A stretch of DNA of 64,000 bases from Candidatus Omnitrophota bacterium. GTDB lineage: Bacteria > Omnitrophota > Gorgyraeia > Duberdicusellales > 4484-171. Location of the stretch: NCBI GenBank assembly GCA_043815185.1, contig JBDRJF010000024.1:64533-128532 (forward strand), written 5' to 3'. The notes below the pieces were generated by a model. It did not search any database and was not told the DNA's origin. It saw only the letters and a program-made list of their open reading frames with translations. Each line of letters starts with the position of its first letter. Within the stretch, counting starts at the first letter, position 1. Shown piece by piece: positions 11,123 to 43,448 of the stretch. The position numbers and the translations under genes were made by a program.

Positions 11123-11136
11123 ACCTAAAAATTTAA

Positions 11137-11208
11137 TTGCCCCGTCTGGACTCGAACCAGAAATAGCTGATCCAGAATCAGCCGTGTTACCGATTACACC
11201 ACGGGGCA
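11137..11208 (-). tRNA. tRNA-Gln (anticodon CUG)
   Basis: Full cloverleaf. Acceptor TGCCCCG/CGGGGCA; D stem GTGT/ACAC; anticodon stem GCTGA/TCAGC with loop TTCTGGA; T stem TCTGG/CCAGA with loop TTCGAGT; discriminator A; no encoded CCA. Confidence 0.9.
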
Positions 11209-11218
11209 AGTTCCTATT

Positions 11219-25360: not shown

Positions 25361-25639
25361 ATGACTACTTTAACAACTACTACAACAAGCAACGCAAAAG
25401 CACATTTTATTGCGATGGTGAGAAAAGCTCATGAATTAGGGCAAACCTACTTAATCACACACCGTGGCGAAGAATCAGCAGTTCTCTTGAGCAGCGAAGA
25501 TTATGAGGGGCTTTTGGAAACTTTGGATATTTTGAAAGACAATAAAGTTGTTGCTTCAATTATGGAATCTCTAAAAGATTTAAAGAGAGCTGAAATCTAT
25601 TCTTTTGAAGATGTTGTTGGACGAAAACAAAAGAAATGA
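25361..25639 (+). CDS. type II antitoxin, Phd/YefM family
   Basis: 92 aa with pattern AKAHFIAMVRKA...TYLITHRGEESAVLLSSEDYEGLLETL. Overlaps the toxin gene by ATGA. Confidence 0.85.
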   Translation: MTTLTTTTTSNAKAHFIAMVRKAHELGQTYLITHRGEESAVLLSSEDYEGLLETLDILKDNKVVASIMESLKDLKRAEIYSFEDVVGRKQKK

Positions 25640-25929
25640 GCCGCTATAATATCTACACCATTTGTTTCACTCGTACCTCAAAAAAACAATTTGAATCTCT
25701 TCCTTCTAAAATCAAAAAGGAAATCGCAAAAATATTAGAGGAAGAAATAGCTCACAATCCTCTATTGGGTAAACCATTACAGGGAGCATTAAAAGGACTT
25801 CGTTCTCAACGAATCGGAAATTTGCGAATAATCTATCAAATTATAAAGAATGAATTGGTCATAATAGTTATAAACCTTGAGCATCGAAAAAAAGTATATC
25901 AAGGGCTTAAATTAAAGAAAAAATGTTAA
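25636..25929 (+). CDS. type II toxin, RelE/ParE (StbE-like) family
   Basis: 97 aa with RIGNLRIIYQI...LVIIVINLEHRKKVY, typical of the RelE/ParE fold. Confidence 0.8.
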   Translation: MSRYNIYTICFTRTSKKQFESLPSKIKKEIAKILEEEIAHNPLLGKPLQGALKGLRSQRIGNLRIIYQIIKNELVIIVINLEHRKKVYQGLKLKKKC

Positions 25930-26954
25930 GGCTTGTGGGGTTGGATTATTACTTTAAGCGAATCTTCCCCCTTAGCAACAAGACTAAAACCTAGTCCTGC
26001 CTGGGCGAGACTAATTCTATGAGTAATCATCTTACCCACAGGCACTGTGCCACTACGAATCCACTCTATTGCTGCAATGGCATCCTGGGGACTATTGCCG
26101 TAAGAATGCCTAATCGTTATACCGTTACGCCAAAAATCATTAATCGGAACAGCCAGAGCAGCTCCCGGCTCTGTAGGCGCAAAACACAATACAGTGCCTC
26201 CCCGGTCAACAGATTTAAATGCCTGCTCAAAGGCTGACAAGGCCGATGTACAAACGATTACAAGATCAGCAAGCCTATCTTCATTGACCTGACCCAAACG
26301 AACCGGAATATTTTCTTTGGCAGATATTACTGAATCTGCTCCAAATTCCTCTGCCATCTTTAAGCGATATTCGCTTATATCGGTAACGATTATGCGCTCA
26401 GCCCCTGTGGCACGGGCTAATAACAAGTGAATTAGCCCTGAGATACCGCCTCCGAGAATTAATACATGCTGACCAGGCTTTAGGTTAACTTCCCTTTGAC
26501 CTCGCACTACACAGGCTAAAGGTTCAATAAAGGTTGCTTCTTCAAATGATACCTCTTCGGGCAGGAGAAAAGTTCCTCTATCAACATTAATTGCCGGCAG
26601 CCGTATGTACTCGGCAAAACCGCCGGGGAAAAAGTTGGTGGTATGCAGAGTTTGACAAGCAGTATGGTGTCCGTTTAGGCAATAGCGACAAGTATTACAG
26701 GGAACATGGTGGGAAACGCAAACTCTATCCCCTTGTTTAAAGCGAGTGACACCTTCTCCTACTCCGATTACCTCACCAGCAACCTCATGGCCTAAAACAA
26801 GCGGGGCTTTTTTAATCCGGTACCACTGCATGACATCACTGCCGCAAATACCGCTGGCTTGTACCTTTATTAAGAGTTCCCCAACTCCAATTTCTGGCAG
26901 AGGAAACTCCTCTACCCTGATATCATTATTGTTGTAGTACATTGCTACCTTCAT
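25926..26954 (-). CDS. zinc-dependent alcohol/polyol dehydrogenase (MDR family)
   Basis: 342 aa with GHEVAGEV zinc site, a structural-zinc Cys cluster (CNTCRYC) and GGGISG NAD fold. Its stop overlaps the relE stop by 4 nt. Confidence 0.85.
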   Translation of the reverse strand: MKVAMYYNNNDIRVEEFPLPEIGVGELLIKVQASGICGSDVMQWYRIKKAPLVLGHEVAGEVIGVGEGVTRFKQGDRVCVSHHVPCNTCRYCLNGHHTACQTLHTTNFFPGGFAEYIRLPAINVDRGTFLLPEEVSFEEATFIEPLACVVRGQREVNLKPGQHVLILGGGISGLIHLLLARATGAERIIVTDISEYRLKMAEEFGADSVISAKENIPVRLGQVNEDRLADLVIVCTSALSAFEQAFKSVDRGGTVLCFAPTEPGAALAVPINDFWRNGITIRHSYGNSPQDAIAAIEWIRSGTVPVGKMITHRISLAQAGLGFSLVAKGEDSLKVIIQPHKP

Positions 26955-26983
26955 CTTAACCCCTTAGTGCTGATAAACTCCTT

Positions 26984-27772
26984 TTAGCTATTTTTAATCT
27001 GATTAAATAATTCCTGGGCTTCCTTAACCGTAGCTCCTTGGTGGATAATAGCTTGCAAACTCTTAGCCATGGCCACCGGATGAATATTCTGCCAAACATT
27101 TCGGCCTAAGTTTATGCCGATAGCTCCTTTCTGCATACCATCGTAAACAAATTCAAAAACCTCCAGTTCATTTTTACACTTTGGCCCACCGGCCATAACC
27201 ACCGGAACCGGGCAGCCATTCACAACTTTATCAAAATCTTCACACCAATAGGTCTTAACTATTCGCGCACCCAACTCAGCAGCAATGCGGCAGCATAAAC
27301 CAAGGTAACGGGCATCCCGTTTGGCTAACTCCTTACCCACAGCAGTAACTGCCATAACCGGAATCCCATACCTCTCGCATTGATTCACAAGATTGGCAAG
27401 ATTTAGCAGAGTTTGACGTTCATAGTCGCTACCGATAAAAATCGAAATTCCTACCGCAGCAGCATTAAGCCGGATAACCTCCTCTAGGGAAGTAGTGATC
27501 TCCTCATTAGCTAAATCTTTGCCGACTATGCTTGTACCTCCGGATACCCTGAGAATAATCGGTTTAGCATTATCAGGATCGACGGCTGAACGTAATACTC
27601 CCCGGGTCACAAACAGGGCATCACAAAAAGGGAGAAGGGGTTTAATTGTCTCCCCGGGTTTTTCCAAACAGCGGGTCGGTCCCTGAAAATAACCGTGGTC
27701 TATCGGTAAGTAAAAACAGTGACCATCGGGTTTGATAACTTGATTAAGCCGGTTTTTCATTCCCCAATCCAT
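26984..27772 (-). CDS. class I aldolase, DhnA/FbaB/LsrF family
   Basis: 262 aa with PIDHGYFQGP near the N-terminus and an IVKTYW Schiff-base lysine region. GAGGAGGTG SD. Confidence 0.75.
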   Translation of the reverse strand: MDWGMKNRLNQVIKPDGHCFYLPIDHGYFQGPTRCLEKPGETIKPLLPFCDALFVTRGVLRSAVDPDNAKPIILRVSGGTSIVGKDLANEEITTSLEEVIRLNAAAVGISIFIGSDYERQTLLNLANLVNQCERYGIPVMAVTAVGKELAKRDARYLGLCCRIAAELGARIVKTYWCEDFDKVVNGCPVPVVMAGGPKCKNELEVFEFVYDGMQKGAIGINLGRNVWQNIHPVAMAKSLQAIIHQGATVKEAQELFNQIKNS

Positions 27773-27779
27773 ATTTACA

Positions 27780-27957
27780 CCTCCTCAATGAGACTTACGT
27801 TTTCTAAAAGAAAACGTGTAGCCGAATTGACTCCGACGAGCGTTGTAAAATTATGGAACACCCTCTGGAATTTTTTATAAAAAATTCCGAGGACCAAGTC
27901 CCGGGAATTTTGTGAATTCCTCGGGGGAATTTTACAACATCTTCTGCGAGCCGGAGT
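27780..27957 (-). repeat. structured intercistronic element, repeat family R2 copy A
   Basis: Helices: ACTCCG/CGGAGT (27830..35 with 27952..57); GTTGTAAAATT/AATTTTACAAC (27842..52 with 27928..38); hairpins at 27862..27892, 27900..27925 and 27797..27817. Ends in CCTCCTCAATGA, the complement of the downstream SD. Confidence 0.7.
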
Positions 27958-27967
27958 ATAAATAAAC

Positions 27968-29458
27968 TTATCCATACCAATAATTTACTAACGGTTTTGC
28001 ATCTTGGGTAGTGTCTACCACAATATTTTTAAGATGGGTATATTCTAATAAACCTTGATCACCCAATTCTTTACCAAACCCGCTTTGCTTAAACCCACCA
28101 TAAGTGAGCTGATTAAAAAACATACCATAAGTATTAATCCAAATTGTTCCGGCATTAATTTTTGTAGCTATATTTTTGGCTTTTTCAATGTCTTGCGTCC
28201 AAATACAGCCGGCAAGAGCAAAATCACTTTTATTGGCTAAGGCAATCGCTTCTTCCACCGTTGAAAACTTACTGACACAAACTATCGGCCCAAAAATTTC
28301 TTCTTGAAAAATTGGCTCCTGAGGCGAAACTTCGGCAAACACTGTAGGTTCAAAAAAGAATCCTTTTTTTAATTCATTTTGCAAAGGGATCTTACCTCCT
28401 GCCAATAACTTCACACCACGAGCCTTGGCCTTCTTTACATAATTAATAACTTTTTCTCTTTGCCATGGTGAAGCCAAGGGGCCCATTTGAGTCTCAAAGT
28501 CCAGGCCGTTACCTAGCTTAATCCGTTTGACTTTATCAAGGAAATTTTTGATAAATTGATTATAAATACTCTCCTGCACTAAAATTCTTGACATTGCTGT
28601 GCACATCTGTCCCTGGTTTAAAAATATAGAACACAGCGAACCATTTACCGCTAGCTCTAGATCGGCATCTTTCAAAATAATACTGGCAGATTTTCCCCCT
28701 AGCTCCATAATCAACTTCTTTACATTCTTAGATGAATACTCTAAAATCTTTTTCCCGACAATATTTGATCCGGTAAATGAAATCATATCTACTCGTTTAT
28801 CGGAACATAACGGCTTACCTACCCCCTCTCCTGTGCCAGAAATGATATTCACTACCCCCTTAGGCAAACCTGATTGGCCAATAATCCGGGCTAATTCCAA
28901 AACGGTAAGAGGAGTTAAGCTTGCGGGCTTTAAAATAACTGTATTTCCGGCTGCTAAACCTTGTGCCAGTTTCCAAGAAGCAATCAAAAGCGGATAGTTC
29001 CAGGGGACGATTAAACCTACTACTCCTCTTGCCTGAGGCAAGAGCTGAGCTTCTGCGGAGGAGCTTTGAAACTGCACCCTTAAAGTTTTGGCTTTTAAGA
29101 TTCTCTCCAGGTTATTACCAAAATATTTAAAAGTTTCAGCAGCAGAAGGTATATCCATAAAAGTTGATTCCTTAAGCGGCTTGCCGGTATTTAAAGTCTC
29201 CATTTCCGCCAGCTCAGCAGCTTTATCTAATATCCCTTTAGATATCTTAAGAAGAAATTCTTTCCTTTGAGTTAAGGAGATATCAGGCCAAGGCCCTTGA
29301 TCAAAAGCAGATCGCGCAGCTTCGATTGCTAAATTTACATCTTCTCGGGAAGCCAAACTAACCTCGGCTATAATTTCTCCGCTGGCAGGATTAATTATCT
29401 TATTTTTCAATTTCGAATCCCTAAATTCTCCGTTGATCCATAGACTATAGGTCTTCAT
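27968..29458 (-). CDS. NAD(P)-dependent aldehyde dehydrogenase
   Basis: 496 aa with a catalytic Glu block (MELGGKSA) and a Cys block (GQMCTAMSR). Confidence 0.9.
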   Translation of the reverse strand: MKTYSLWINGEFRDSKLKNKIINPASGEIIAEVSLASREDVNLAIEAARSAFDQGPWPDISLTQRKEFLLKISKGILDKAAELAEMETLNTGKPLKESTFMDIPSAAETFKYFGNNLERILKAKTLRVQFQSSSAEAQLLPQARGVVGLIVPWNYPLLIASWKLAQGLAAGNTVILKPASLTPLTVLELARIIGQSGLPKGVVNIISGTGEGVGKPLCSDKRVDMISFTGSNIVGKKILEYSSKNVKKLIMELGGKSASIILKDADLELAVNGSLCSIFLNQGQMCTAMSRILVQESIYNQFIKNFLDKVKRIKLGNGLDFETQMGPLASPWQREKVINYVKKAKARGVKLLAGGKIPLQNELKKGFFFEPTVFAEVSPQEPIFQEEIFGPIVCVSKFSTVEEAIALANKSDFALAGCIWTQDIEKAKNIATKINAGTIWINTYGMFFNQLTYGGFKQSGFGKELGDQGLLEYTHLKNIVVDTTQDAKPLVNYWYG

Positions 29459-30462
29459 TTTGTTTTAACCTGTTTAAATAACTCAAATAAACGTTTAAAC
29501 GGCACATACCAGCGAGACAGCTGCCCTAACTGACCGTTTAGCTTCATTTTTCCTTGAGTAACAGCTACAAAGGGGTCTAACTTTCCCAGAAAAACTAACT
29601 CCCAAATGTCCTCTGAAGCTGAAATTATAAAAGGTGCATTATGATCAAATTCTAATTTTTTTATCTTCCCTTTTTCAAAAATAAATCTATAAGATTTGTT
29701 GTCTTCATTTAGGCTTATGGCTAACTCTAGAGTTAAATCTAATTCTTGGCCTTTTTTACTAATAAATTCATCTTTATTAATCAAATCTACAATTGCCTCT
29801 ATATGTTCCCTGGAAAACATCTTGTAAACATTAGTTTTTTGGGTTAAGTCTTGTTTTAAGGCTATATCTAAATCATCTAAAACTGCCTTATCAAATAATC
29901 TGGCAACACTAGCAACTTTTACTGCCTCTTCTAGGGTTTCGATTAAATCAAAGCTCTCTTTAAAGTTTTGGCCAATACTAACTACACCATGATTTTTAAT
30001 TACTACCAGGTTATTTGCCTTTAAGGCTTCGATTACTAATTCTGGTTTGGTTATGCTGGGAGTCTCCTGCAAAACAACACCCAGATCCCCTAGATAAACT
30101 TGGGATTCAAAGGTTAGGTTCTTAAGCTCAGAACATACAGAAAAATAGCCATTTACTAAAGGCGGGTGGCAATGGATTATTGTATTGGTTTTAAAACTCT
30201 CATAAATTAATCTATGCACAGGAAATTCCGTACTCAGACGATTATTTCTTAAATCTTTTTCGTTCCGAAGATTAATTTTAATTATAGCTTCGGGTTTTAA
30301 TTGGCCCAGAGATGCTCCGGTAGCAGTAATAAGAATATTATTTTTGTCTAATCGGGCGCTTAAATTTCCCGAATTAGCAACTACTAAATGTCCATCTTGC
30401 AACTTCTTGCCAATAGCAATTATTTTCTGCTTTAATTGTCCCGCTCGGCTCAATATCATCAT
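29455..30462 (-). CDS. class II aldolase/adducin-family protein fused to a C-terminal SCP2 domain
   Basis: 335 aa. The N-terminal ~200 aa carry HCHPP and IKNHGVVSIG motifs. The C-terminal ~110 aa show an SCP2 pattern (GKLDPFVAVTQGKMKLNGQLGQL). Confidence 0.75.
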   Translation of the reverse strand: MMILSRAGQLKQKIIAIGKKLQDGHLVVANSGNLSARLDKNNILITATGASLGQLKPEAIIKINLRNEKDLRNNRLSTEFPVHRLIYESFKTNTIIHCHPPLVNGYFSVCSELKNLTFESQVYLGDLGVVLQETPSITKPELVIEALKANNLVVIKNHGVVSIGQNFKESFDLIETLEEAVKVASVARLFDKAVLDDLDIALKQDLTQKTNVYKMFSREHIEAIVDLINKDEFISKKGQELDLTLELAISLNEDNKSYRFIFEKGKIKKLEFDHNAPFIISASEDIWELVFLGKLDPFVAVTQGKMKLNGQLGQLSRWYVPFKRLFELFKQVKTK

Positions 30463-31409
30463 CTTACCTCTAAGTATATATGCTTAGTAATAAACTTACT
30501 AGGAGTAATATCAAAGGCCGGATAATAAGCTTTTGAACCTTTGGGAGCAAGACCCAACCCCTGATAAACCAGAAGTTCCTTATCCGGCCTTATCTCAATC
30601 TTTATATCCTTTCCGGTTTTTGCACCGGATAGTGGAGCACAAAGCACATAAAAAGGAATTTTAAAGTATTTAGCTATTAGGGCTATCTGATAAGTCCCAA
30701 CTTTATTAGCAATGTCTCCATTTTGAGCCAAATTATCTGAACCAACTATGACTTTATTGATTTTACCTTCTTCCATTACCTGGGCAACCATATTATCAGT
30801 TATTACTGTAACATCAAAGCCTCCAAGCATAAGCTCCCAGGCAGTAAGCCTTGAGCCTTGTAAATAAGGCCGGGTCTCAGTAACAAAAAAACTTATCTTT
30901 TTACCCTTAGCCCGGGCAAAAGCAGCTATCAGAGGCAAGAGACCGCTAACATTACAGTGAGTAAGAATTACATCGCCGCCTTTAACTAACTTAAAGGCTT
31001 GTTTTGCTTGTTTAACCCGGGAATTTTTTAGCATCTCTAAAAAACCTAATATGGCCCTTTCTAGGGGCATACCTGCTTTATGCCAACCCAAAACCATATT
31101 AGTCAAATACTTGAATGAAAGAGTAGGCCGAGTTGAATTTATTGCTTTAGCAACCTTAACTAATACAGGAAGAAGATTCTTCTTATTTCTATTATTCCTG
31201 ATAACCATAAGAAAGGTATACATAACCAATATGACCTGTCCCACAGCCCGGGTTTTCATCTGGCTTATTGCCAAGCAAGCTTGTAAATAGTTTTTAGCCT
31301 TTATGTATTTCTCTTTATGCGGTAATAAAGTCTCATCAAGTATATGAATCACATTACCGGTTAATTTAATCGGCCAGAAAAGGGGTGAAAATTTAATATT
31401 TTTTCCCAT
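30459..31409 (-). CDS. eIF-2B alpha/beta/delta-family sugar-phosphate isomerase (MtnA / 5-deoxyribose-1-P isomerase-like)
   Basis: 316 aa with the family signature GSDNLAQNGDIANKVGTYQIALIAKYFKIPFYV. Confidence 0.75.
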   Translation of the reverse strand: MGKNIKFSPLFWPIKLTGNVIHILDETLLPHKEKYIKAKNYLQACLAISQMKTRAVGQVILVMYTFLMVIRNNRNKKNLLPVLVKVAKAINSTRPTLSFKYLTNMVLGWHKAGMPLERAILGFLEMLKNSRVKQAKQAFKLVKGGDVILTHCNVSGLLPLIAAFARAKGKKISFFVTETRPYLQGSRLTAWELMLGGFDVTVITDNMVAQVMEEGKINKVIVGSDNLAQNGDIANKVGTYQIALIAKYFKIPFYVLCAPLSGAKTGKDIKIEIRPDKELLVYQGLGLAPKGSKAYYPAFDITPSKFITKHIYLEVR

Positions 31410-31410
31410 T

Positions 31411-32295
31411 TTAAAACAGCGTTGTGAAGTTCTTATAAATAATCTTTTCTTTTACCTCAAGACCAAATTCATCTAAGGCCTTAAGATTACTCTCTAGATC
31501 AGCATTAACTGGATAGTCCGAGCCCCAAAGAATATGGTCTTGGCCAAATAAATCTAAAGCCAATTTAATATTGCCGAAAGATGCCCCGGATGTATCTACA
31601 TATACTTCTTGTAAAATCTGAGAAGGCAACCTGCCTAAATCTTTGACTATCTCTCTTTTACGTAACATTGTATAAACTCGATCAAACCTATCCTTCAAGA
31701 AAGGAACAACCCCGCCTAAAGATGCCAGAAGAAACTTGACCTTAAACTTATCCAGCACCCCCTGCATCATCAGAAGCCCTAGAAAAATAGAGGTATCAAA
31801 ACTATATTCTAAGACCGGCGTAAGCAAGGGGTCTTTTACGCGACTATAGCCAATAGGATTAATTGTTTGCGAATGAACAAAGATTGGTAAGTTGTGCTTT
31901 TCGGCTGCTTCAAATAAGGGGAAAAGTTTATCAACTATAAACTTGCCACTATAACTTGAAGCCAGATTTATTGCTCGAAACCCTCTGTTCTTTAATTCAG
32001 CTAACTCTGAGGAGATATTGTTTAAGTTCTCTACATCAACCAGACAAGTTGCAATTATCTTGGAATTCTCCTTTAAAATCTTCTCTAATTCCCTATTGTA
32101 AATTTCACTGACCCTTTTAAAGCCACCTAATTTAAGGTGAGCATCAGTAGAAGGATAAACCAAAAGAGCCTTATCAATGTTGTTACTATCTAAGAACTCA
32201 TAAAGCTTATCCTTATTGGCCCATATGCCCTTATAAAAGGTAGTGTGCTCTGAGAGCTCCTGGGGGATAAAATGAATATGGCTATCGCATAGCAT
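31411..32295 (-). CDS. amidohydrolase-2 (metal-dependent hydrolase/decarboxylase) family protein
   Basis: 294 aa with an N-terminal DSHIH metal motif and TIM-barrel-like length. No SD seen. Confidence 0.7.
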   Translation of the reverse strand: MLCDSHIHFIPQELSEHTTFYKGIWANKDKLYEFLDSNNIDKALLVYPSTDAHLKLGGFKRVSEIYNRELEKILKENSKIIATCLVDVENLNNISSELAELKNRGFRAINLASSYSGKFIVDKLFPLFEAAEKHNLPIFVHSQTINPIGYSRVKDPLLTPVLEYSFDTSIFLGLLMMQGVLDKFKVKFLLASLGGVVPFLKDRFDRVYTMLRKREIVKDLGRLPSQILQEVYVDTSGASFGNIKLALDLFGQDHILWGSDYPVNADLESNLKALDEFGLEVKEKIIYKNFTTLF

Positions 32296-32421: not shown

Positions 32422-33882
32422 CTATATGTGCTTTTCTCCCTTAACAGCACCTTCTTCCCATTTGCTTACCCCGCGCATTACGTCTTGAAAGCATAATTTT
32501 GCTAAAGGGTCAAAGTTACTAGTCATAATTCTCTGGATTCGCCCGGGTTTTGAGAAGAACTCTCGCATGCACCAAGCGCCTAATCTTCCGTAATCCTCCA
32601 AGGTGAGATGTTCTGTGGCCATTACCGGGTGTAAGAAATCCCACTTAAGAAAATCTATTTTTTTAGGATCAATCTCACCCTTCTTTATCCTCTGCCTCCA
32701 AATTGGAGAGTTCGGCGCCGGAGTAACATAGCCTACCCACAAAATATCCGGGTCAACCTGATCAGTAAATTCAAATCTCTGCTTTATGATAGCTTCGGTA
32801 TCATCATCAAAACCCATCATAATATCAGCAACAATAGCAATATTGTTCTTTCGCAAGATTTCAATGGTCTTTTTTATCTGTTCGATGGTTATTCCTTTAG
32901 CAATCTTCTTTAACTCTGAAGCAGTAGTAACTTCTATACCGAATACGCCGGTAAATAACCCGGACTCTTTCATCAAAGGCAGAATTTCCTCACAATTGGT
33001 CCAATCAATTGCCCGGCCTAAGGAAACCCACTTAATCGGGTTCTTTTTCTCCAGCTTCATCCGGCAGAATTTCTCTACCCGCTTAGGATCAACATTAAAA
33101 TTATCATCCTGGATTACTACTACCTTTACTCCGTATTCACGATAAAGTAATTCTAACTCCTCAATTACCCTCTCCGGAGATTTCGCCCGCCACTTTAGGA
33201 AATCCTCAGGATGCCGGGGGTCATATTGATCCCACTCATAACAAAAGGTGCAAGCCGAAGGGCAACCCCGGGAAGTTACCATTTCAACAAACGGCTTCCA
33301 ATGAGTGTGACCGACATACTTGTCCATGGGGAATAAATTATAAGCCGGAAGCGGTAATTTATCTAAATCTCTATTGAGGGCCCGGTGGGGGCCCATAACA
33401 GCTTTACCGTCTATACGCGAACTTACCCCGGCAATATCTCTGATGTCTTTTAATTGATCGATAGCTTCAATCAAATCATAGAATGCCTCCTCCTCGCCCA
33501 TAACTACATAGTCAATTGCCGGGTTACTCTCTAAAGTAAAAACTGGCATTGAAGAATACCACAAGCCCCCGACGATTATCTTTGTATTAGGAAGAGCTTG
33601 TTTTATTAATTTTGCCGCTTGATTAAAATAATGAAGAATAGCAAAGCCTCCGTAAGAGTGAAGAATATCACCGATAGTAACCACATCGGGATTCTTTTCT
33701 TTTACCTTGGCAACCAGCTCATCCATCTCTATCTCTAAGGCCTTACAATCTAAGACTTCTAATTCTTTATAACCCTTTTCGCGAATGTAGGCTGCCCATT
33801 GAGCATAAAGCTGATTGGGCCCAAGGTGTTTACCATGAGTTGCCCAAGCTCCCAACTTTGGCGTCACAAACAAAACTTTCAT
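32422..33882 (-). CDS. B12-binding domain radical SAM protein (class B)
   Basis: 486 aa with an N-terminal Rossmann-like B12-binding region and the CxxxCxxC motif CPSACTFC. Confidence 0.85.
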   Translation of the reverse strand: MKVLFVTPKLGAWATHGKHLGPNQLYAQWAAYIREKGYKELEVLDCKALEIEMDELVAKVKEKNPDVVTIGDILHSYGGFAILHYFNQAAKLIKQALPNTKIIVGGLWYSSMPVFTLESNPAIDYVVMGEEEAFYDLIEAIDQLKDIRDIAGVSSRIDGKAVMGPHRALNRDLDKLPLPAYNLFPMDKYVGHTHWKPFVEMVTSRGCPSACTFCYEWDQYDPRHPEDFLKWRAKSPERVIEELELLYREYGVKVVVIQDDNFNVDPKRVEKFCRMKLEKKNPIKWVSLGRAIDWTNCEEILPLMKESGLFTGVFGIEVTTASELKKIAKGITIEQIKKTIEILRKNNIAIVADIMMGFDDDTEAIIKQRFEFTDQVDPDILWVGYVTPAPNSPIWRQRIKKGEIDPKKIDFLKWDFLHPVMATEHLTLEDYGRLGAWCMREFFSKPGRIQRIMTSNFDPLAKLCFQDVMRGVSKWEEGAVKGEKHI

Positions 33883-33912: not shown

Positions 33913-34707
33913 CTATTTTTTGGGATGATCTTGTTGAAACGGTATAACCGGCTTTTTCCAAGGTGTTTGCTGATTTATTACTGCCAATTCTAAAAGGCAA
34001 GTATTTTTGCTCTGGGTAAGAGCAAATAAAACTGCATCAGCTACTGCCTCAGGATCCATTAATCTTCCCTGCTCTTCTGATATATCCTTTAACTTACCAG
34101 TTAAGGGAGTTTTGGTCACTCCCGGGAATATGGAAGTAATTTTAATCCCAAAATCCCGCATCTCCCAAAATAATCCCTTAGCAAAAGCTCGTAAAGCCAC
34201 TTTCAACGAAGTATAAACTATAAAATTCCGCGGTGGAGGGTCAACCATAACTGAACCACTGGTAATATTTACAATCTGTCCTCCTCCGGCTTCCTTCATC
34301 GGGTTGACAACCAGACGGGCGAGCATAACATAGCTGTAGTAATTTGTATAGATGATTTTCTCAACATCCTCTACCGGCTGTTGCCAAAAAGGGTGTTGGC
34401 TGGAAACACCGGCTCCATTAACCAAAATATCGATTCTTTTAAACTTCTCTAAGGTTTTGTTGACTAAATTCTCTAAATCCTTCTGTTTAGTGACATCACA
34501 CTTAAGGCAAAGCACTTTATCCTTATCAGGAAGCGTTTCTTTTAACTCCTGAAGAACTTCTTCTCTTCGGGCAGCCAGAATCAACTTAGCGCCCTCCCCG
34601 GCCAATTTCTTAACTACACTCTTGCCGATTCCGCCGCTTGCCCCGGTTATAACGCATACTTTACCTTCTAACTTAGCCATAGCTCTCCTTTTTAATAAAT
34701 CTATCAC
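33913..34707 (-). CDS. short-chain dehydrogenase/reductase
   Basis: 264 aa with TGASGGIG cofactor motif and YTSLK (YxxxK) catalytic motif. Confidence 0.88.
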   Translation of the reverse strand: MIDLLKRRAMAKLEGKVCVITGASGGIGKSVVKKLAGEGAKLILAARREEVLQELKETLPDKDKVLCLKCDVTKQKDLENLVNKTLEKFKRIDILVNGAGVSSQHPFWQQPVEDVEKIIYTNYYSYVMLARLVVNPMKEAGGGQIVNITSGSVMVDPPPRNFIVYTSLKVALRAFAKGLFWEMRDFGIKITSIFPGVTKTPLTGKLKDISEEQGRLMDPEAVADAVLFALTQSKNTCLLELAVINQQTPWKKPVIPFQQDHPKK

Positions 34708-36237: not shown

Positions 36238-37389
36238 TTAAGCTAAACTTTGTTGAACTACCCTTTTTAAATTAAACCCTAACAAAAAGACACCTAAACC
36301 CACGATAACAAATAAGGCTTTAAAGCCGGCTTGAGATACTAAGACTCCTCCTAAAAAAGCCCCGAGAGCTCCGAAACTAAAGCGTAAAGCACTATTTAGG
36401 CTGGAAGCATCGCGGAGAATCCGATCGGGAAACTGAGTAAGATGCGATGACAGGCCGACATGGGTTAAAGCCCAACCACAGCCCCATAAAGTTATTAGTA
36501 AAAAGATTGATTGATATTTTTGTATAAAGATAAGAAAAAAAGCAAAGATGCTCATCAAGATAAACCCAATACTGCTTATCCTGATGTTACCGAAGCGGGA
36601 ACTTAAAAACCCTCCCATGAATTCAAATATTATTGCGCTTAAAGTAGCTACGGTAAAAATTGAACTTATAACTACCTGATTTAAAGAAAAACTCTCACTT
36701 AAATATATGCCCAGCCGCTGCTGCAGGCTATGGTAGAGGAAACTACCAAGCATAATCACCAGAAAAAAATTAATTGCTTTTTTATCTTTTAAAGTATCAA
36801 AATAACTTATCCTAAGCTTTTCTACCCGGAAGTCAAAATCATCTAAGTGAGTCATTACCAGGATAAACACCAGAAGGCTTAAACTAGCCGGTATCAGATA
36901 AAGTAGCAGGGGAAAACTGGCGAAGAATCCACTCAAAAAAACACTGATTAAGTTTGAAAGATAGGAAAGAGTGAAAAATATCCCAATATACTTTGATTTA
37001 TCCTGGGTTGAGATAACCTTACCTATAGTAATAAGCACCAGGGGTACGAAGCTGCAGCCAAAACAACCCATTAAAAATCTAAATAGGAAAGCTTCGGTGA
37101 TACTCCTGGAAAGCGAAAAAAATAAAGCTGTCAGAAAGAACCCCAGAGTTGTAAAAAGAAGTAACTTTCTTACCTTAACTACCCGGGTAAAGGGGGCCCA
37201 GATAAGGGCAAATACTCCGTAAGGAAGCATATAGAGCCAGGTGAGCGGCAAGGCCGCGCTCTTAGCTATCCCAAAATAGATTGCGATTGATGGTATTAAA
37301 GCAGCCATAGCCGCAACACCAAAAGAAACTGCAAAAAACATCAAACAGAAGATATAGAAACTTAACTTAGGCATTAGCCTCCTGCTCAA
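36238..37389 (-). CDS. MFS transporter
   Basis: 383 aa with about 12 hydrophobic spans. Confidence 0.8.
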   Translation of the reverse strand: MSRRLMPKLSFYIFCLMFFAVSFGVAAMAALIPSIAIYFGIAKSAALPLTWLYMLPYGVFALIWAPFTRVVKVRKLLLFTTLGFFLTALFFSLSRSITEAFLFRFLMGCFGCSFVPLVLITIGKVISTQDKSKYIGIFFTLSYLSNLISVFLSGFFASFPLLLYLIPASLSLLVFILVMTHLDDFDFRVEKLRISYFDTLKDKKAINFFLVIMLGSFLYHSLQQRLGIYLSESFSLNQVVISSIFTVATLSAIIFEFMGGFLSSRFGNIRISSIGFILMSIFAFFLIFIQKYQSIFLLITLWGCGWALTHVGLSSHLTQFPDRILRDASSLNSALRFSFGALGAFLGGVLVSQAGFKALFVIVGLGVFLLGFNLKRVVQQSLA

Positions 37390-37804
37390 TTATCTCCTTA
37401 AATAGCTTTAAGTTATCCTGGGAGTGTTTATTTATTAACTCCTCAACTTGAGAATCAACATATTTAGCCTGGCTATCCATCTTAAAGTCCTGAATCCAGG
37501 TCATCTCAACACCAGCGGTAACTTCACGGTAGAGCCAGATAATCTTCATATACTCAAAAGGAAACATCGGCTCTAACCTACAAGCATAAGCAAATTTATC
37601 TTCCTTAAACAGCAGGCGATAGGACTTCCAGCTATTCCCGTTCTTATGGGTGAGTTGAAAAATAATCTTATTACCTTGGGTCTCCAAAACATCGGATGCG
37701 GTATATTCTTCAAATAGTTCCTTCCAGCGCGAAATATCATTGCTAATATCAAAAATCAACTCAAAAGGTGCATTAATCACAATCGAGTTTACTGTATGTG
37801 CCAT
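37367..37804 (-). CDS. SRPBCC-superfamily protein (polyketide cyclase/aromatase-like)
   Basis: 145 aa. Starts MAHTVNSIVINAPFELIFDISNDISRW, typical of the polyketide_cyc2/START-like fold. Confidence 0.7.
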   Translation of the reverse strand: MAHTVNSIVINAPFELIFDISNDISRWKELFEEYTASDVLETQGNKIIFQLTHKNGNSWKSYRLLFKEDKFAYACRLEPMFPFEYMKIIWLYREVTAGVEMTWIQDFKMDSQAKYVDSQVEELINKHSQDNLKLFKEIIEQEANA

Positions 37805-37825
37805 AACTACCCCCTTTTTTTAAAA

Positions 37826-38623
37826 TTACAAAACTGCTACTACCCTGGCCCAGGCAGCACCGGTCTTCTTTATTCTTACTGGGAAACAAATAACCTTAAA
37901 TCCCCAATCCGGCAGCTTAGCCAAATTAGCTAATCTCTCAATATGGATAAACTCCCGCTTTCGGCCATGAAAATGGGCCGGCCAAAGGTGTTTAGGGTCT
38001 TTTGTTTTCAAAAAATCCCCAATCATAAATTTATAAGGCCGGTCAATACCCATAGTATCTACTCCCAATATCTTTACCCCCCGATCAAGAAGGTAGTCAA
38101 TTGCTGAAGGGTCTACTCCCGGATAATCAGAAAAATACTCAGGGCTTCCGAAAAGACGATCTGAACCGGTATAAAAAAGAACGATATCCCAAGGCTTGAG
38201 CAAATAATCAATCTTTTTCAAGGCTTCTTCGATGTCTTGACTTGTAATGACCTGATCAGCTCCTTTGTAACTAAAGTCAAGTTTGACTGCGTCTTGATAA
38301 CACCACTCCAGAGGGATTTCATCGGCCGTCTTCGATGGTTTACCTTCAGATTTACTTCCGTAGTGAAAAGAATAGTCAAGATGAGTTCCGCTATGAACCG
38401 AAGAATGCACTATCTCTAAAGATAAAAACTCTTGATCAGGCAAATCCTCCTTCCTGATTATCCGTTGCCCCAGAAAATACTTAATCTTACCCTTAAAAGT
38501 TTTACCCATCAAAACTCTATTTAACTTGGCAACTCCCTCCTGATGAGACACCCGTTCGATCTTTAAATCATGGACCTCAAAAGCTTTATCATCAATCAAT
38601 AAGCTTAAATCTACTATCTTCAT
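37826..38623 (-). CDS. cyclase-family protein (PF04199-like, kynurenine formamidase/polyketide cyclase fold)
   Basis: 265 aa with an HxGTHxD motif (HSGTHLD). Confidence 0.7.
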   Translation of the reverse strand: MKIVDLSLLIDDKAFEVHDLKIERVSHQEGVAKLNRVLMGKTFKGKIKYFLGQRIIRKEDLPDQEFLSLEIVHSSVHSGTHLDYSFHYGSKSEGKPSKTADEIPLEWCYQDAVKLDFSYKGADQVITSQDIEEALKKIDYLLKPWDIVLFYTGSDRLFGSPEYFSDYPGVDPSAIDYLLDRGVKILGVDTMGIDRPYKFMIGDFLKTKDPKHLWPAHFHGRKREFIHIERLANLAKLPDWGFKVICFPVRIKKTGAAWARVVAVL

Positions 38624-38641
38624 GGTTCTGCTGGTTAATAC

Positions 38642-38890
38642 TTAGCTTAGGCTACCCTCTTTCTTGTTAATTACCTCAACAATCTCATTAAGGGTAGAGA
38701 ATTTTGTAATCTCATTAGTTTCAAGCTTAATACCAAAGCGCTTATTAAAAGCGACTACTAACTCTACCATCTCGGTTGAGTCAACTCCGATAGAGTCATA
38801 TAATTTCTGGCCTTCTTTTATCTCGCTTTCTTCTATATCCAAAGTCTTGCTTATGATTCCAAGGACCTCTTCCTTCAACTCCATAAACAC
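38642..38890 (-). CDS. acyl carrier protein
   Basis: 82 aa with the phosphopantetheine attachment motif GVDSTEMVEL. Confidence 0.88.
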   Translation of the reverse strand: MFMELKEEVLGIISKTLDIEESEIKEGQKLYDSIGVDSTEMVELVVAFNKRFGIKLETNEITKFSTLNEIVEVINKKEGSLS

Positions 38891-38893
38891 CTC

Positions 38894-40129
38894 CTATTCT
38901 TTCTCAATAGCCAAAACAACATTTATCCCGCCCCGCCCTCTGGCAATAATCAAAGCTTTGGTAATTTCTTTCTCTTTCAGTTTATTGGGAGTATAGTCTA
39001 AATCACAATAAAGGTCTCTCATCTCCTGGTTAATCGTCGGCAGAACGATTGAGTATTTCATTGAAAAAAGTGTAACAATTAAATCTAAAGCGCTCTGGGC
39101 CCCGAGAAGATTTCCGTACATGCTCTTAGGCGCACTGAGAACAATTTTGTTTATTTGCTTCCCAAATACATTTTTTAAAGCTGATGTTTCAAGATAATCC
39201 CCGATTACAGTTGCCTCACCATCTAAACAGATATAATCTATGTCTGGCTTATTCCAAGAAGCATCCTTTAGGCATTCCTCTATTGCGTATTCTAACTCCT
39301 CTGATTTAGGACTGTATCTTGAATAGTGTTGTCCGTCGGAAGAGAAACCAATTCCTTTTATAAATCCATAAATCGGCACACCTCTTTTTTTGGCCTTAGA
39401 TTCTTTCTCCAAAATAACTACTCCTGAGCCCTCGCCTAAAACAAAACCATCCCGGTTTAAATCATAAGGTTTGTATGCTGTTTTAGGATTAAGATTATTT
39501 TTTGATAAACTACCGCAAGTATTTGCACTCAATAGAGCATAAGGAGTAATCGGGGCTTCCATGCCTCCGGCTAATACGAAATCATTTTTATCCTGAGCTA
39601 TTATTTTAGAACCATACCATAAACTCAAGGCTGAAGAAGCCTTATCGGCAACAATAGTTTTGCTATAACCTTTGAAGCCGTAATATATAGTAATTTGGCC
39701 CTGGGGAGCTGCCGGAAACCAGGCTGAAGCCATATAAGGGGAAATACCTTCTCTTCCCTCTAGATACATATCTCTTAGCTCAGTCTCAGCAAAGAGCCAG
39801 CCGCCAATAGCATTGCCCATAAATACGCCGACTCGATCTTTATCGATTTTTTCCAAATCCATTCCGGCATCTTCTATGGCTTGTTCTGAGGCAACTAGAG
39901 CCATATGAGAAAACACATCTATTTTCTTAACTAACCTTCCTGAAACATGTGAGTAGTGATCAAGCTCATGGACTTGGCCGGCAATCCGAGAAGGATAAAG
40001 GCTAGCGTCAAACCTCTTGATTTCATCGACAAAAGATGCGCATTTTTTAAGGTTAGCCCAAAAGGTTTCTTTTTTTAATCCACAAGGTGAAACTACGCCG
40101 ACACCGGTTATTGCAACTCTCGGCCCCAT
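38894..40129 (-). CDS. ketosynthase beta / chain-length-factor-like (no active-site Cys)
   Basis: 411 aa, colinear with the adjacent KS, but with Lys at the Cys column (IVADKASSALS) and Asp at the second His column (ICLDGEAT). Confidence 0.75.
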   Translation of the reverse strand: MGPRVAITGVGVVSPCGLKKETFWANLKKCASFVDEIKRFDASLYPSRIAGQVHELDHYSHVSGRLVKKIDVFSHMALVASEQAIEDAGMDLEKIDKDRVGVFMGNAIGGWLFAETELRDMYLEGREGISPYMASAWFPAAPQGQITIYYGFKGYSKTIVADKASSALSLWYGSKIIAQDKNDFVLAGGMEAPITPYALLSANTCGSLSKNNLNPKTAYKPYDLNRDGFVLGEGSGVVILEKESKAKKRGVPIYGFIKGIGFSSDGQHYSRYSPKSEELEYAIEECLKDASWNKPDIDYICLDGEATVIGDYLETSALKNVFGKQINKIVLSAPKSMYGNLLGAQSALDLIVTLFSMKYSIVLPTINQEMRDLYCDLDYTPNKLKEKEITKALIIARGRGGINVVLAIEKE

Positions 40130-40132
40130 TAA

Positions 40133-41380
40133 TTACCTCCACTTCTTAAATACAATCGAAGAATGGATTCCCGAAAATCCACTGCTGGTCTTAAGTATAT
40201 ACTCCGGCATTAATTTCCTCTTTTTATTGGGAATATAATCTAAATCACACTTAGGATCAGGCTCTTCCTGGTTAATCGTCGGTGGAAGATATCCTTTTTC
40301 AAAAATCATACAACATAATACACTCTCTACAGCATTAGCAGCAGCTAAAGGATGGCCGATCATCGATTTAATCGAGCTTATCGGCACCTTATAAGCAAAA
40401 TCTCCTAAAACTTTTTTGTAAGCGTCAGTTTCAAAGACATCATTCTGCCGGGTCGATGAGCCGTGAGCATTTATATAACCAATATCCTCATTCTTTATCC
40501 CTGAATTCTTTATTGCTTCCCGTATAGAACGAGCCATCGGTTCACCGTCTTCAGGCAAATCAGTCATATGATAGGCATTACAACTTGTCCCATAACCAAG
40601 AATTTCAGCATAAATATGGGAGCCTCTCTTCTTAGCATGTTCTAACTCTTCCAATATAAGGATTCCAGCTGCCTCACTAATAACAAAACCATTCCGCTTG
40701 TTATCAAAAGGACGGCTGGCCTTATGAGGTTCCTGGTTATTCTTGGCTAAAACGCTTACCACGTCAAAAGCTCCGAAGGTAATCGGGGTAACCGGAGCTT
40801 CATTGGCTCCGGCAATAATTAGGTCCTGCCTTCCTTCCTGAATAAGCTCATAAGCAAAACCTAAAGAATCAGTTCCGGCAGTGCAACCGGTTGAGACTGT
40901 ACAATTCATTCCCTTGGTCCCATAAATAGCCCCTACCTCTGCGCTGGGAGTATTAAACATAGCAGCATCATAAAGATAAGGCCTTCCCTTCCGGGGATCA
41001 ATCGGGCTCTTACCCCAATCAGTGACTAATAAAAATTCTTCTTCCATAAAACGGGTCCCGCAAATAGCATTGGCTAAGATTACACCACATCTGCGGCGGT
41101 CCAACTTATTAAAATCTAATTTTGCATCTTCCACCGCTCCCTTAGCAGCGGCAATCCCGAATTGAACATACCGATCCATACGTTTATGGTCAGTTATACC
41201 AAACTTTAAAGGGTCGAAATTCAAATCTTGGGAAGCAATCTTTGAAAGGAATAAACTTACATCAAAGTTCTCAACCCTTTCAATACAAGATTTACCCTCA
41301 ATTAGATTGTTGTAAAATTCATTCTTATCTTCTCCGGCTGCGCAGATAACTCCAATTCCAGTAATCACCACTCTCTTCAC
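40133..41380 (-). CDS. ketosynthase alpha, type II PKS-like
   Basis: 415 aa with a GTG start after a GAGGAGG SD. Motifs VSTGCTAGTDS (Cys), CNAYHMT and INAHGSSTRQNDVFET (His/His). Confidence 0.8.
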   Translation of the reverse strand: MKRVVITGIGVICAAGEDKNEFYNNLIEGKSCIERVENFDVSLFLSKIASQDLNFDPLKFGITDHKRMDRYVQFGIAAAKGAVEDAKLDFNKLDRRRCGVILANAICGTRFMEEEFLLVTDWGKSPIDPRKGRPYLYDAAMFNTPSAEVGAIYGTKGMNCTVSTGCTAGTDSLGFAYELIQEGRQDLIIAGANEAPVTPITFGAFDVVSVLAKNNQEPHKASRPFDNKRNGFVISEAAGILILEELEHAKKRGSHIYAEILGYGTSCNAYHMTDLPEDGEPMARSIREAIKNSGIKNEDIGYINAHGSSTRQNDVFETDAYKKVLGDFAYKVPISSIKSMIGHPLAAANAVESVLCCMIFEKGYLPPTINQEEPDPKCDLDYIPNKKRKLMPEYILKTSSGFSGIHSSIVFKKWR

Positions 41381-41388
41381 TTCTCTTT

Positions 41389-41556
41389 CCTCCTCAATGA
41401 TCCGCCTTAGGCGGAGAATTGATCCCGACGAGCGTTACAAAATTGTCGAAGAGAATTTTGTAACATCTTCTGCCCTCTGGAATTTTCCACTGGAAAATTC
41501 CGAGGACTCAGTCCCTGAAATTTCAGCATGTGAAATTTCTAGGGGCGAGTCGGGAT
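41389..41556 (-). repeat. structured intercistronic element, repeat family R2 copy B
   Basis: Outer stem ATCCCGAC/GTCGGGAT (41422..29 with 41549..56) enclosing hairpins at 41434..41464, 41474..41505 and 41513..41544, plus a hairpin at 41401..41415 and CCTCCTCAATGA (41389..41400). Confidence 0.7.
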
Positions 41557-41562
41557 ATATTA

Positions 41563-42168
41563 TTAATCTTTCCTAGCAACTTTAAATACAATGTTCCCGC
41601 CATCCGGGCAGGTTACCGTATCTATAGAATTCTGATTATCCATAAACTGAAATTTTGCTCCAAAATTTAGGGCAAAGAGGGCTGGGAAAGCTGTGTGCCA
41701 GGCTGCTCCGCAGAATCCAGGAATACACTTAAGGCCTTCAATATCCCATTTATCACCAACCTGATACTTATAAAAACACTTAGGCGAAGCCATCCCTTTA
41801 GGGGTACCCTTAGCTTTAATAACCTCAATAACCATCCTCTTGGGGTTCGGGCCCTTATAGTTATGATCTTTAGGAATATTATCGATCTCACCCTGCTTAT
41901 TAAAAATTTCGGCCTTAAACTCTAGTTTCCCGCCATCGGGACAAGTTACTAACAATGACCTTTGATTATCCATAAAAGGGAATTTTGCTCCAAAACTTAA
42001 AGCGTAAATTACCGGAAATAAAGCATGGGCCAGGCCTAAGCAAAAGTGCTTGGGCGGATGGGTAAAATCCTCTAAAATTAATTCATCACCGGCCTTATAG
42101 CCATGGTAACAATCTCCATAAACATTAAGCACTGTTAATTTTAATTTTGGGAAAGGTGTTTTAACCAT
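41563..42168 (-). CDS. tandem-duplicated TIGR04076-like protein
   Basis: 201 aa. The two halves share FC..A....FP...AL.FGAKF.FMDNQ......TCPDGG...FK. The family call is from memory of the CPDG-containing TIGR04076 pattern. Confidence 0.5.
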   Translation of the reverse strand: MVKTPFPKLKLTVLNVYGDCYHGYKAGDELILEDFTHPPKHFCLGLAHALFPVIYALSFGAKFPFMDNQRSLLVTCPDGGKLEFKAEIFNKQGEIDNIPKDHNYKGPNPKRMVIEVIKAKGTPKGMASPKCFYKYQVGDKWDIEGLKCIPGFCGAAWHTAFPALFALNFGAKFQFMDNQNSIDTVTCPDGGNIVFKVARKD

Positions 42169-42169
42169 A

Positions 42170-43165: not shown

Positions 43166-43169
43166 TTTT

Positions 43170-43448
43170 CTACTTCTCTTGACTAATATATTGTGAATAA
43201 TCAATATTTAATTGGCTAAGTAGCCTCACAAGCATACCTTTGAAGGCCGGAGGAACCTCCTGGAAGAAGGCAACAATTAAATCTTTATCCTCAACTTCTT
43301 TAGAATCTCTTGCCTTAGCTAACTGTTCAGACTTTTGCTTAATAAGTTGCTCAGCAATTGTTCTATGAAATTGCGGTAAATTCTCAATTATCCGATCAAA
43401 CTTACTCTTGGTTTCTCGGTTCCAGTTAACTTCCATAATACCTTCCAC
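43170..43448 (-). CDS. small helical protein, PCP_red-like (protochlorophyllide reductase B C-terminal-like) domain
   Basis: 92 aa. The W-x2-E...LPQFHR...E..A pattern resembles PF08369. Tentative. Confidence 0.35.
   Translation of the reverse strand: MEGIMEVNWNRETKSKFDRIIENLPQFHRTIAEQLIKQKSEQLAKARDSKEVEDKDLIVAFFQEVPPAFKGMLVRLLSQLNIDYSQYISQEK

Follow-up and report, generated by a model that had tools for sequence, protein, structure and literature searches.

A DHAP-shunt-like enzyme module embedded in a conserved B12-radical-SAM/type II PKS-like gene cluster of Omnitrophota

5'-Deoxyadenosine is an inhibitory by-product of every radical S-adenosylmethionine (SAM) reaction, and its disposal is known in few organisms. 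Among the closest described systems are the dihydroxyacetone phosphate (DHAP) shunt, which uses MtnP (or MtnN and MtnK), MtnA, and Ald2, and the DrdK-DrdI-DrdA enzymes of Bacillus thuringiensis, which are encoded by a three-gene operon that stands alone (PMC6079011, PMC10986504). The order phosphorylase, isomerase, and class II aldolase is established for salvage of 5'-deoxyadenosine (PMC6079011). With an aldehyde dehydrogenase (ALDH) added at the end, this order constitutes the fluoroacetate pathway (cited in PMC6079011), which in Streptomyces cattleya comprises a fluorinase, the phosphorylase FlB, an isomerase, an aldolase, and an ALDH. Here, we analyze a stretch of 64,000 nucleotides (nt) from a Candidatus Omnitrophota bacterium (assembly GCA_043815185.1, contig JBDRJF010000024.1, positions 64,533 to 128,532; referred to below as the window). 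It encodes an eIF-2B-family isomerase, a class II aldolase, an ALDH, an LsrF-type protein, a zinc-dependent alcohol dehydrogenase (Zn-ADH), and a nucleoside phosphorylase (together, the module) in the same gene cluster as a B12-binding radical SAM enzyme (B12-rSAM) and proteins resembling a type II polyketide synthase (PKS).

We conclude that the module is a variant of the known DHAP-shunt route, situated within an undescribed, phylum-wide B12-rSAM/type II PKS-like cluster. Its enzyme logic is that of the DHAP shunt and of the Drd enzymes, but the module lies within a biosynthetic cluster and is inherited along with it. It differs further in having an aldolase fused to an SCP2 domain, a shortened isomerase that scores below the MtnA cut-offs, a hexameric-DeoD-like phosphorylase that has lost its ribose-binding Glu, a dedicated ALDH and AMP-forming ligase, and an optional Zn-ADH/LsrF pair. 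Four downstream enzyme types are shared with the fluoroacetate pathway, from which the module differs in that the SAM-consuming enzyme is a B12-rSAM protein; no match to the fluorinase/chlorinase family DUF62 (PF01887) was found in the scanned open reading frames (ORFs) of the cluster. Literature searches returned no description of such a cluster in Omnitrophota, where similar clusters carry only the antiSMASH label "ladderane" (PMC9902471). The features of the cluster, in which KS denotes ketosynthase, ACP acyl carrier protein, and PNP purine nucleoside phosphorylase, are as follows.

25926-26954, minus strand: Zn-ADH, with PF08240 (ADH_N) and PF00107 (ADH_zinc_N)
26984-27772, minus strand: LsrF-type class I aldolase-fold thiolase, DeoC/LacD family, matching NCBIfam LsrF model NF006081; an optional part of the module
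27968-29458, minus strand: ALDH, NAD(P)+-dependent and non-acylating (PF00171, E value 7e-163)
29455-30462, minus strand: class II aldolase (PF00596, Aldolase_II, E value 1.6e-31) with a C-terminal SCP2 domain of the lipid-binding fold (PF02036, 24 bits)
30459-31409, minus strand: MtnA/DrdI-like isomerase of the eIF-2B family, 316 amino acids (PF01008, IF-2B, E value 1.4e-55)
31411-32295, minus strand: Amidohydro_2 protein (PF04909), ACMSD/IDCase/LigW-like, with ACMSD, IDCase, and LigW as its PDB matches
32422-33882, minus strand: B12-binding radical SAM enzyme (PF02310 and PF04055), BchE-like at 210 bits, which is under the cut-off
33913-34707, minus strand: SDR ketoreductase-type gene (PF00106), syntenic in relatives
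37367-43204, minus strand: type II PKS-like core, comprising an ApbA-type reductase, a TIGR04076 protein, KS1, KS2, ACP, a PF04199 cyclase, and an SRPBCC cyclase
43455-44189, minus strand: PNP/UDP-family phosphorylase (NP-I, DeoD/SsMTAP-like; PF01048, PNP_UDP_1, E value 2e-33)
44192-45703, minus strand: AMP-forming acyl-CoA/ACP ligase (AMP-ligase) of the 4CL/FadD/MenE type (PF00501 and PF13193)

These genes belong to one co-directional cluster of about 21 kb (25.9 to 47.4 kb of the window), outside which the window contains housekeeping genes. The cluster is transcribed in the order AMP-ligase, PNP, ApbA-type reductase, TIGR04076 protein, KS1, KS2, ACP, PF04199 cyclase, SRPBCC cyclase, MFS transporter, TPR protein, SDR, B12-rSAM, Amidohydro_2, and then the five module genes, so the PNP gene lies 12 kb upstream of the isomerase gene but inside the same cluster. 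The stop of the Amidohydro_2 gene is 1 nt ahead of the isomerase start. A preliminary description, made from the sequence of the window alone, had placed the five genes and the PNP/UDP-family gene correctly, with all five on the minus strand. Its statement that they mostly overlap holds for isomerase, aldolase, and ALDH (overlaps of 4 nt each at the isomerase/aldolase and aldolase/ALDH junctions), but not for the LsrF and Zn-ADH genes, which are preceded by gaps of 196 and 29 nt, respectively. An Rfam scan detected no SAM, S-adenosylhomocysteine, or B12 riboswitch (its sole match was one tRNA), and a scan for promoters and terminators performed no better than on shuffled sequence.

The association of these genes is far beyond chance, given their conserved synteny in 80 other species. 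For this comparison, the cluster proteins of the window were mapped by tblastn onto the loci of 80 species, which are the best 80 of the 183 genomes of the GTDB set that encode the aldolase-SCP2 fusion. All 80 are Omnitrophota metagenome-assembled genomes (MAGs), some of them labelled "uncultured Planctomycetia." In the most common arrangement, TIGR04076, KS1, KS2, B12-rSAM, ACP, cyclase, SRPBCC, (MFS), SDR, and Amidohydro_2 genes are followed by PNP, isomerase, aldolase-SCP2, (LsrF and Zn-ADH), ALDH, AMP-ligase, and rlmN, with the PKS-like core conserved upstream of the module. The isomerase gene abuts the aldolase gene in 70 of 72 loci, the PNP gene abuts that of the isomerase in 52 of 61, and the ALDH gene is downstream of the aldolase gene in 54 of 55. 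The AMP-ligase gene lies downstream in 40 of 55 loci (immediately after ALDH in 29). The triad of phosphorylase, MtnA-type isomerase, and class II aldolase recognized in the preliminary description is real, and it is contiguous in most relatives.

Two further gene orders bear on how tightly the module is held to the rest of the cluster. In the subclade of the window, the PNP and ligase genes have shifted together to the upstream end. Deep lineages, in which the aldolase is about 40% identical, have the order PadR, AMP-ligase, PNP, isomerase, a short second IF-2B gene, aldolase-SCP2, ALDH, B12-rSAM, ApbA, KS, and KS, with a Zn-ADH/DeoC pair close by. Module, B12-rSAM, and KS genes therefore stay linked in each of the three orders and even where aldolase identity has fallen to about 40%, and the B12-rSAM protein itself is 73 to 90% identical across 35 relatives. 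This cohesion through rearrangement and deep divergence argues for a functional link. The preliminary description had tied the triad to the radical SAM gene, which its co-inheritance bears out, and had offered a separate sugar-phosphate catabolic operon as the alternative. The latter finds no support in the loci with at least 9 kb of upstream sequence, where Amidohydro_2 is found in 40 of 40, the cyclase in 38 of 40, and B12-rSAM in 34 of 40. The distribution argues for the module being an integral part of a conserved Omnitrophota B12-rSAM/KSalpha-KSbeta cluster. One relative (the locus of P0280) has a gene of the MamF/MmsF family (magnetosome membrane proteins) between its ALDH and B12-rSAM genes.

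The aldolase-SCP2 fusion gives a measure of how widely this system occurs. A Candidatus Omnitrophota MAG encodes a protein 100% identical to the aldolase of the window, and over 1200 relatives of the fusion were retrieved at E values below 1e-10. Identity is at least 62% for the best 120, which, wherever an organism name is given, are assigned to Omnitrophota or Omnitrophica. Representatives clustered at 50% identity add about 25 full-length fused clusters at 29 to 41% identity; where named, these also are Omnitrophota, apart from one MAG labelled Deltaproteobacteria.

An alternative that the synteny bears upon directly is general catabolism of nucleosides and ribose-1-phosphate, in which scavenged adenosine, inosine, or uridine would be converted via ribose-1-phosphate and ribulose-1-phosphate to DHAP and glycolaldehyde. 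Such a route would resemble the last steps of the haloarchaeal non-carboxylating pentose-bisphosphate pathway, and the PKS-like neighborhood would reflect only phylum-level synteny. The DeoD/Udp-like character of the phosphorylase and a weak match (48 bits) of the aldolase to the NCBIfam ribulose-1-phosphate aldolase model are compatible with it, and some local synteny is simply conserved, as the housekeeping gene rlmN adjoins the cluster in most genomes. However, passive synteny would not keep the module with the radical SAM and KS genes through three gene orders and such deep divergence, the isomerase is MtnA-like, and neither the ALDH-ligase pairing nor the added Zn-ADH/LsrF pair would be of much use for glycolaldehyde. 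We consider this explanation improbable.

The isomerase passes the broad model TIGR00524 (196.8 bits; cut-off, 185.85) and reaches neither MtnA model (NF004326, 234.4 bits with a cut-off of 271; TIGR00512, 215.5 bits with a cut-off of 279). Its PDB matches are the MtnA proteins of Thermotoga maritima (1t9k, 170 bits), Bacillus subtilis, and Archaeoglobus fulgidus, at 150 to 170 bits, with ribose-1,5-bisphosphate (R15P) isomerases at 92 bits or less. The 72 isomerase orthologs retain the catalytic Cys (LTHCN) and Asp (VGxDxLxxNGDxANK), as well as the residues that contact the 1-phosphate (Arg of the N-terminal TRA motif, RPT, and Gln of TETRPYxQG within TETRPYxQGxRL). In R15P isomerase, the 5-phosphate is bound by Ser137, Lys138, and Lys240 in the numbering of PH0208 (PMC5789824). 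Equivalents of these residues are absent from the isomerase, which has C-N-V-S-G after the Cys and a Ser 36 residues past the Asp. Because the 1-phosphate residues are kept and the 5-phosphate residues are gone, the enzyme should use an aldose-1-phosphate that is unphosphorylated at position 5; its pocket there differs from that of MtnA. The absence of the 5-phosphate residues, together with a score of 117 bits against a cut-off of 314 for the R15P isomerase model TIGR00511, led us to reject R15P isomerase identity. The MtnA/DrdI-like assignment of the preliminary description is thereby upheld: the protein does not group with R15P isomerases (234 versus 117 bits). In the deep lineages, the short second IF-2B gene that follows the isomerase gene (L085, 9426-9941; L086, 9483-9926) encodes a protein of 147 to 171 amino acids that consists of the C-terminal domain only; as it has neither the catalytic Cys nor the Asp, it may serve as a non-catalytic partner subunit.

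In the aldolase, N33, S35, T46, E79, H97, H99, and H158 are invariant across 85 sequences; these positions comprise the metal-ligand His triad, the equivalent of FucA Glu73, and the DHAP-phosphate residues. The equivalent of FucA Tyr113 is present in the aldolases of the window clade, and that of His3 was also noted. The protein is about equidistant from Thermus thermophilus FucA, YgbL/OtnC, and B. thuringiensis DrdA, both by sequence (FucA, 56 bits; DrdA 6btd, 42 bits) and by fold (Foldseek E values of 2e-14 for FucA, 4e-12 for YgbL, and 7e-12 for DrdA 6btd). FucA models are far under their cut-offs (TIGR01086, 27.5 versus 400 bits; NF040649 [FucA_Meth], 79 versus 250 bits), and the window contains no fucose genes (fucI/fucK context). 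Nor do the contexts of the nearest stand-alone aldolases, which include neither fuc genes nor classical mtnK/mtnA neighbors, place the enzyme. Of the preliminary assignment as an MtnB/Ald2/DrdA-like class II aldolase, the class II part stands, with a DHAP-type site retained, but these scores give no basis for placing it with Ald2/DrdA over FucA.

A further alternative concerns this protein alone. It could be an MtnB-like dehydratase of methionine salvage, acting on the methylthioribulose-1-phosphate derived from methylthioadenosine (MTA). MtnB has the same fold and its models do match, weakly, at 52 to 55 bits; aldolase models score higher (PRK08660, 115 bits; FucA_Meth, 79 bits), and the FucA Glu73, Tyr113, and His3 equivalents are in place. 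The window has no MtnC, MtnD, MtnW, or MtnX genes, and an ALDH encoded directly downstream suits an aldehyde product. We rejected the dehydratase reading on residue and score grounds and regard it as very improbable.

The SCP2 domain of the fusion (approximately residues 210 to 335), which the preliminary description had not mentioned, scores 24 bits on PF02036 (cut-off, 21.3), is conserved to the same degree as the catalytic domain, and is almost confined to the Omnitrophota. A profile of the C-terminal domain matches mainly PDB entries of the SCP2 fold, namely TT1886 (5e-5), T. thermophilus SCP2 2cx7 (8e-5), AF_1534, and 3bn8. An AlphaFold2 model built on the 85-sequence alignment (pLDDT, 94.4; pTM, 0.91) has a secondary-structure order that suits this fold; an earlier run on a 20-sequence alignment was discarded (pLDDT, 53.8). 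The pTM of 0.91 suggests that the SCP2 domain would be packed in a fixed position on the catalytic domain.

Two relatives have an aldolase without the full module. In L087 (7265-8570), an ortholog of the phosphorylase (45% identical) is directly followed by a stand-alone class II aldolase of 189 amino acids (38% identical) that lacks an SCP2 domain, and neither an isomerase gene nor any KS or radical SAM gene lies within 8 kb; this single case is consistent with SCP2 accompanying the cluster context. In L089 (8001-12471), a 213-amino-acid aldolase relative precedes AMP-ligase and MMPL-type transporter genes and lies downstream of ACCA and PadR genes. As the ACCA, PadR, ligase, and MMPL-type genes also flank a full module in L086, L089 may be a reduced or repurposed remnant.

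The phosphorylase has its best PDB match (98 bits) in 1jds, the hexameric MTA phosphorylase of Sulfolobus solfataricus, followed by DeoD-type PNPs. Its score on the NCBIfam DeoD model (97 bits) is under the cut-off, and the HpnG model gives 42 bits. This agrees with the earlier placement of the protein in the PNP/UDP family that includes MTA phosphorylase. The phosphate-binding Gly and Arg, the RxG(S/T)CG motif, and the catalytic Asp (VSDN) are kept in the 61 orthologs.

The ALDH has the active-site motifs ELGGKS and GQMC and is an ordinary non-acylating enzyme. The AMP-ligase scores 425 bits on PRK06187, and its PDB matches are led by 4-coumarate-CoA ligase (223 bits), followed by feruloyl-CoA, MenE, and FadD enzymes. 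In all three gene orders its gene adjoins a gene of the module, and it is next to PNP in the window and in L085 and L086. Flux, we infer, proceeds from nucleoside to aldehyde, acid, and thioester, since the ALDH coupled translationally to the aldolase is non-acylating and an AMP-ligase is clustered with them. The reverse, nucleoside-synthesizing direction was rejected because this coupling of a non-acylating ALDH is found in 54 of 55 genomes.

The remainder of the cluster bears on both the source of the substrate and the fate of the product. KS1 has the Cys-His-His triad. KS2 (38894-40129) has lost it and has no Gln at the position of the Cys, for which reason it is predicted to be unable to self-prime by malonyl decarboxylation. 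The two look like a KSalpha/KSbeta (chain-length-factor) pair without the usual self-priming residue. The Amidohydro_2 protein probably acts as a decarboxylase in the polyketide branch. Each turnover of a class B radical SAM enzyme releases one 5'-deoxyadenosine, and we presume that the B12-rSAM enzyme of the cluster is the source of this compound. The TIGR04076 protein (window positions 41563-42168; 201 amino acids) contains a CPDGG motif in each of its two TIGR04076 repeats and has no Pfam match; it heads the KS genes in relatives. A literature search on this family was uninformative.

The reading that we tentatively prefer, as plausible though short of probable, is that the module, as an integral part of the radical SAM/KS cluster, converts a 5'-deoxy-type adenosine nucleoside to DHAP and an aldehyde built on two carbons. 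In the first step, the phosphorylase would split the nucleoside with inorganic phosphate into base and 5-substituted ribose-1-phosphate. The likeliest nucleoside is 5'-deoxyadenosine from the B12-rSAM enzyme, which is the most economical substrate because the module constantly accompanies that enzyme. The MtnA-like isomerase would then form the corresponding ribulose-1-phosphate, from which the aldolase would generate DHAP and X-CH2-CHO (acetaldehyde, if X is H). The translationally coupled ALDH would oxidize the aldehyde to the acid, and the AMP-ligase would convert the acid to a thioester, possibly a primer for the KS/ACP system. The idea of a two-carbon primer arises from the missing priming Gln of KS2.

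The LsrF-like protein passes the LsrF equivalog model NF006081 (360.6 bits; cut-off, 297), is 46% identical to E. coli LsrF (253 bits), and keeps the Schiff-base Lys motif I(V/I)KTY. In E. coli, LsrF acts within the lsr system for autoinducer-2 (AI-2). Here, in contrast, lsrK (kinase), lsrG (isomerase), and lsrACDB (transporter) are found neither in the window nor in related loci, and LsrF is strictly paired with Zn-ADH inside a nucleoside-processing module. Both genes are present in 17 loci, neither is present in 38, and in none does one occur alone; the pair is often inserted between the aldolase and ALDH genes. GC content at third codon positions gives no sign of recent acquisition of the two genes. 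The best NCBIfam models for the Zn-ADH are of the Tdh, IolM, and GatD types, all under their cut-offs; it is polyol/threonine-dehydrogenase-like. The preliminary description had the Zn-ADH handle the aldehyde from the aldolase. We find it tied to LsrF instead, never apart from it, and that proposal is not sustained.

In the roughly one-third of species that have this pair, it may provide an ATP-free, thiolytic bypass of the aldolase/ALDH/ligase route, a reading that fits the optional, all-or-none distribution of the two genes. The Zn-ADH would oxidize the C4 hydroxyl of 5-deoxyribulose-1-phosphate. By our own derivation, the product would be CH3-CO-CHOH-CO-CH2-OP, i.e., 3-hydroxy-2,4-pentanedione-5-phosphate (P-HPD), which has the same constitution as the native substrate of LsrF. 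LsrF would then pass the acetyl group of P-HPD to CoA, yielding DHAP and acetyl-CoA. We speculate that the recovered C2 unit may serve as a KS primer. A literature search found no paper linking LsrF with deoxyribulose or 5'-deoxyadenosine.

Several features weigh against 5'-deoxyadenosine as the substrate and against simple kinship with the known salvage enzymes. In all 61 phosphorylase orthologs, the ribose-binding Glu of the EME motif is replaced by Val (VDMV(T/S)S). That alignment used a provisional E. coli reference sequence; alignment with SsMTAP (1jds) gives the same Glu-to-Val replacement. A 7-residue deletion in the isomerase removes the MtnA-specific loop "LATxxYGTALG" that follows the catalytic Cys, in a protein that is under the MtnA equivalog cut-offs, and the aldolase has no specific grouping with DrdA. 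The ligase is akin to aryl and medium-/long-chain ligases rather than to acetyl-CoA synthetase, and release of acetaldehyde does not explain why an SCP2 domain is so strongly conserved. Both the altered ribose site in the phosphorylase and the shortening of the isomerase around the 5-substituent hint at a substrate other than plain 5'-deoxyadenosine or MTA. Of the earlier suggestion that the cluster clears the 5'-deoxyadenosine made by its radical SAM enzyme, the association of the triad with that enzyme thus stands, but clearance leaves the SCP2 fusion, the pairing of ALDH with a 4CL/FadD-type ligase, and the loss of the phosphorylase Glu unexplained.

These same features would be accommodated if the module trimmed, for biosynthesis, a SAM-derived adenosine with a bulky hydrophobic 5' substituent, such as an adenosyl adduct of a cluster intermediate. 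The logic would be that of HpnH/HpnG (hopanoid side chain) or MqnE/MqnB (futalosine), which likewise combine a radical SAM enzyme with base removal by a PNP/UDP-family protein and whose hydrophobic substrates would suit SCP2. The SCP2 domain would hold the tail, and X-CH2-CHO would be oxidized and loaded by the ligase as a KS starter. The conserved fusion with its SCP2-fold profile matches, the 4CL/FadD/MenE type of the ligase, and the remodelled phosphorylase and isomerase sites are as expected from such a role, and the ALDH-ligase pairing and the Gln-less KSbeta suit a need for an external starter. The PNP-aldolase pair of L087, outside a KS/radical SAM context and without SCP2, points the same way as a single case. 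There is a precedent in fluorometabolite biosynthesis (cited in PMC6079011). However, the radical SAM enzyme of the cluster is B12-binding (class B), unlike HpnH and MqnE, and neither of those systems has an isomerase or aldolase step. No class B radical SAM enzyme is known to adenosylate a substrate. Among the scanned cluster ORFs there is no HpnH/MqnE-like gene, just as there is no DUF62 gene, and the LsrF-like enzyme is near genuine LsrF, which handles an acetyl-sized group. On balance, we consider such a substrate unlikely.

A related and equally doubtful proposal extends this reasoning to both parts of the module. The module would be a chain-building device rather than one for disposal, in which a SAM-derived, hydrophobic 5'-substituted adenosine is converted via aldehyde and acid to a ligase-loaded starter for a PKS-like system that does not prime itself. 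Separately, Zn-ADH and LsrF would constitute an undescribed oxidative-thiolytic branch of 5'-deoxynucleoside salvage. The SalL/SalT route, in which a SAM-derived 5'-substituted deoxyadenosine is converted to chloroethylmalonyl-CoA, a PKS building block, illustrates a comparable connection.

What the locus would mean depends on which of these readings applies. A salvage-type route appears to be hard-wired to a radical SAM biosynthetic cluster across an uncultured phylum, and the SCP2-fused aldolase, the trimmed isomerase, and the ALDH-ligase hand-off are new parts. If the bypass operates as proposed, the Zn-ADH/LsrF pair would extend LsrF-type enzymes beyond degradation of a quorum signal. Should the aldehyde fragment prime the KS/ACP system, one route would serve both to salvage a by-product and to supply a starter. 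If the substituent is large, the cluster would represent a new way from SAM to polyketide or lipid building blocks, one shared by an entire candidate phylum.

Some observations concern the surroundings of the cluster. A Phd/YefM-ParE toxin-antitoxin pair (25361-25929, plus strand) overlaps the 3' end of the Zn-ADH gene on the opposite strand, and in related Omnitrophota loci small mobile-type insertions (MazE/PIN, HicAB, HEPN/NTase, and SLFN-AlbA) occur between module genes. The ORF at 10502-11209 overlaps a tRNA-Gln(CTG) gene (11136-11209), has no family match, and is therefore unlikely to be a gene along its entire length. Positions 8134-10518 encode a short-form cobalamin-dependent methionine synthase (MetH), in which the reactivation domain has no match; from this gene, the organism is predicted to use B12 and to have a methionine cycle.

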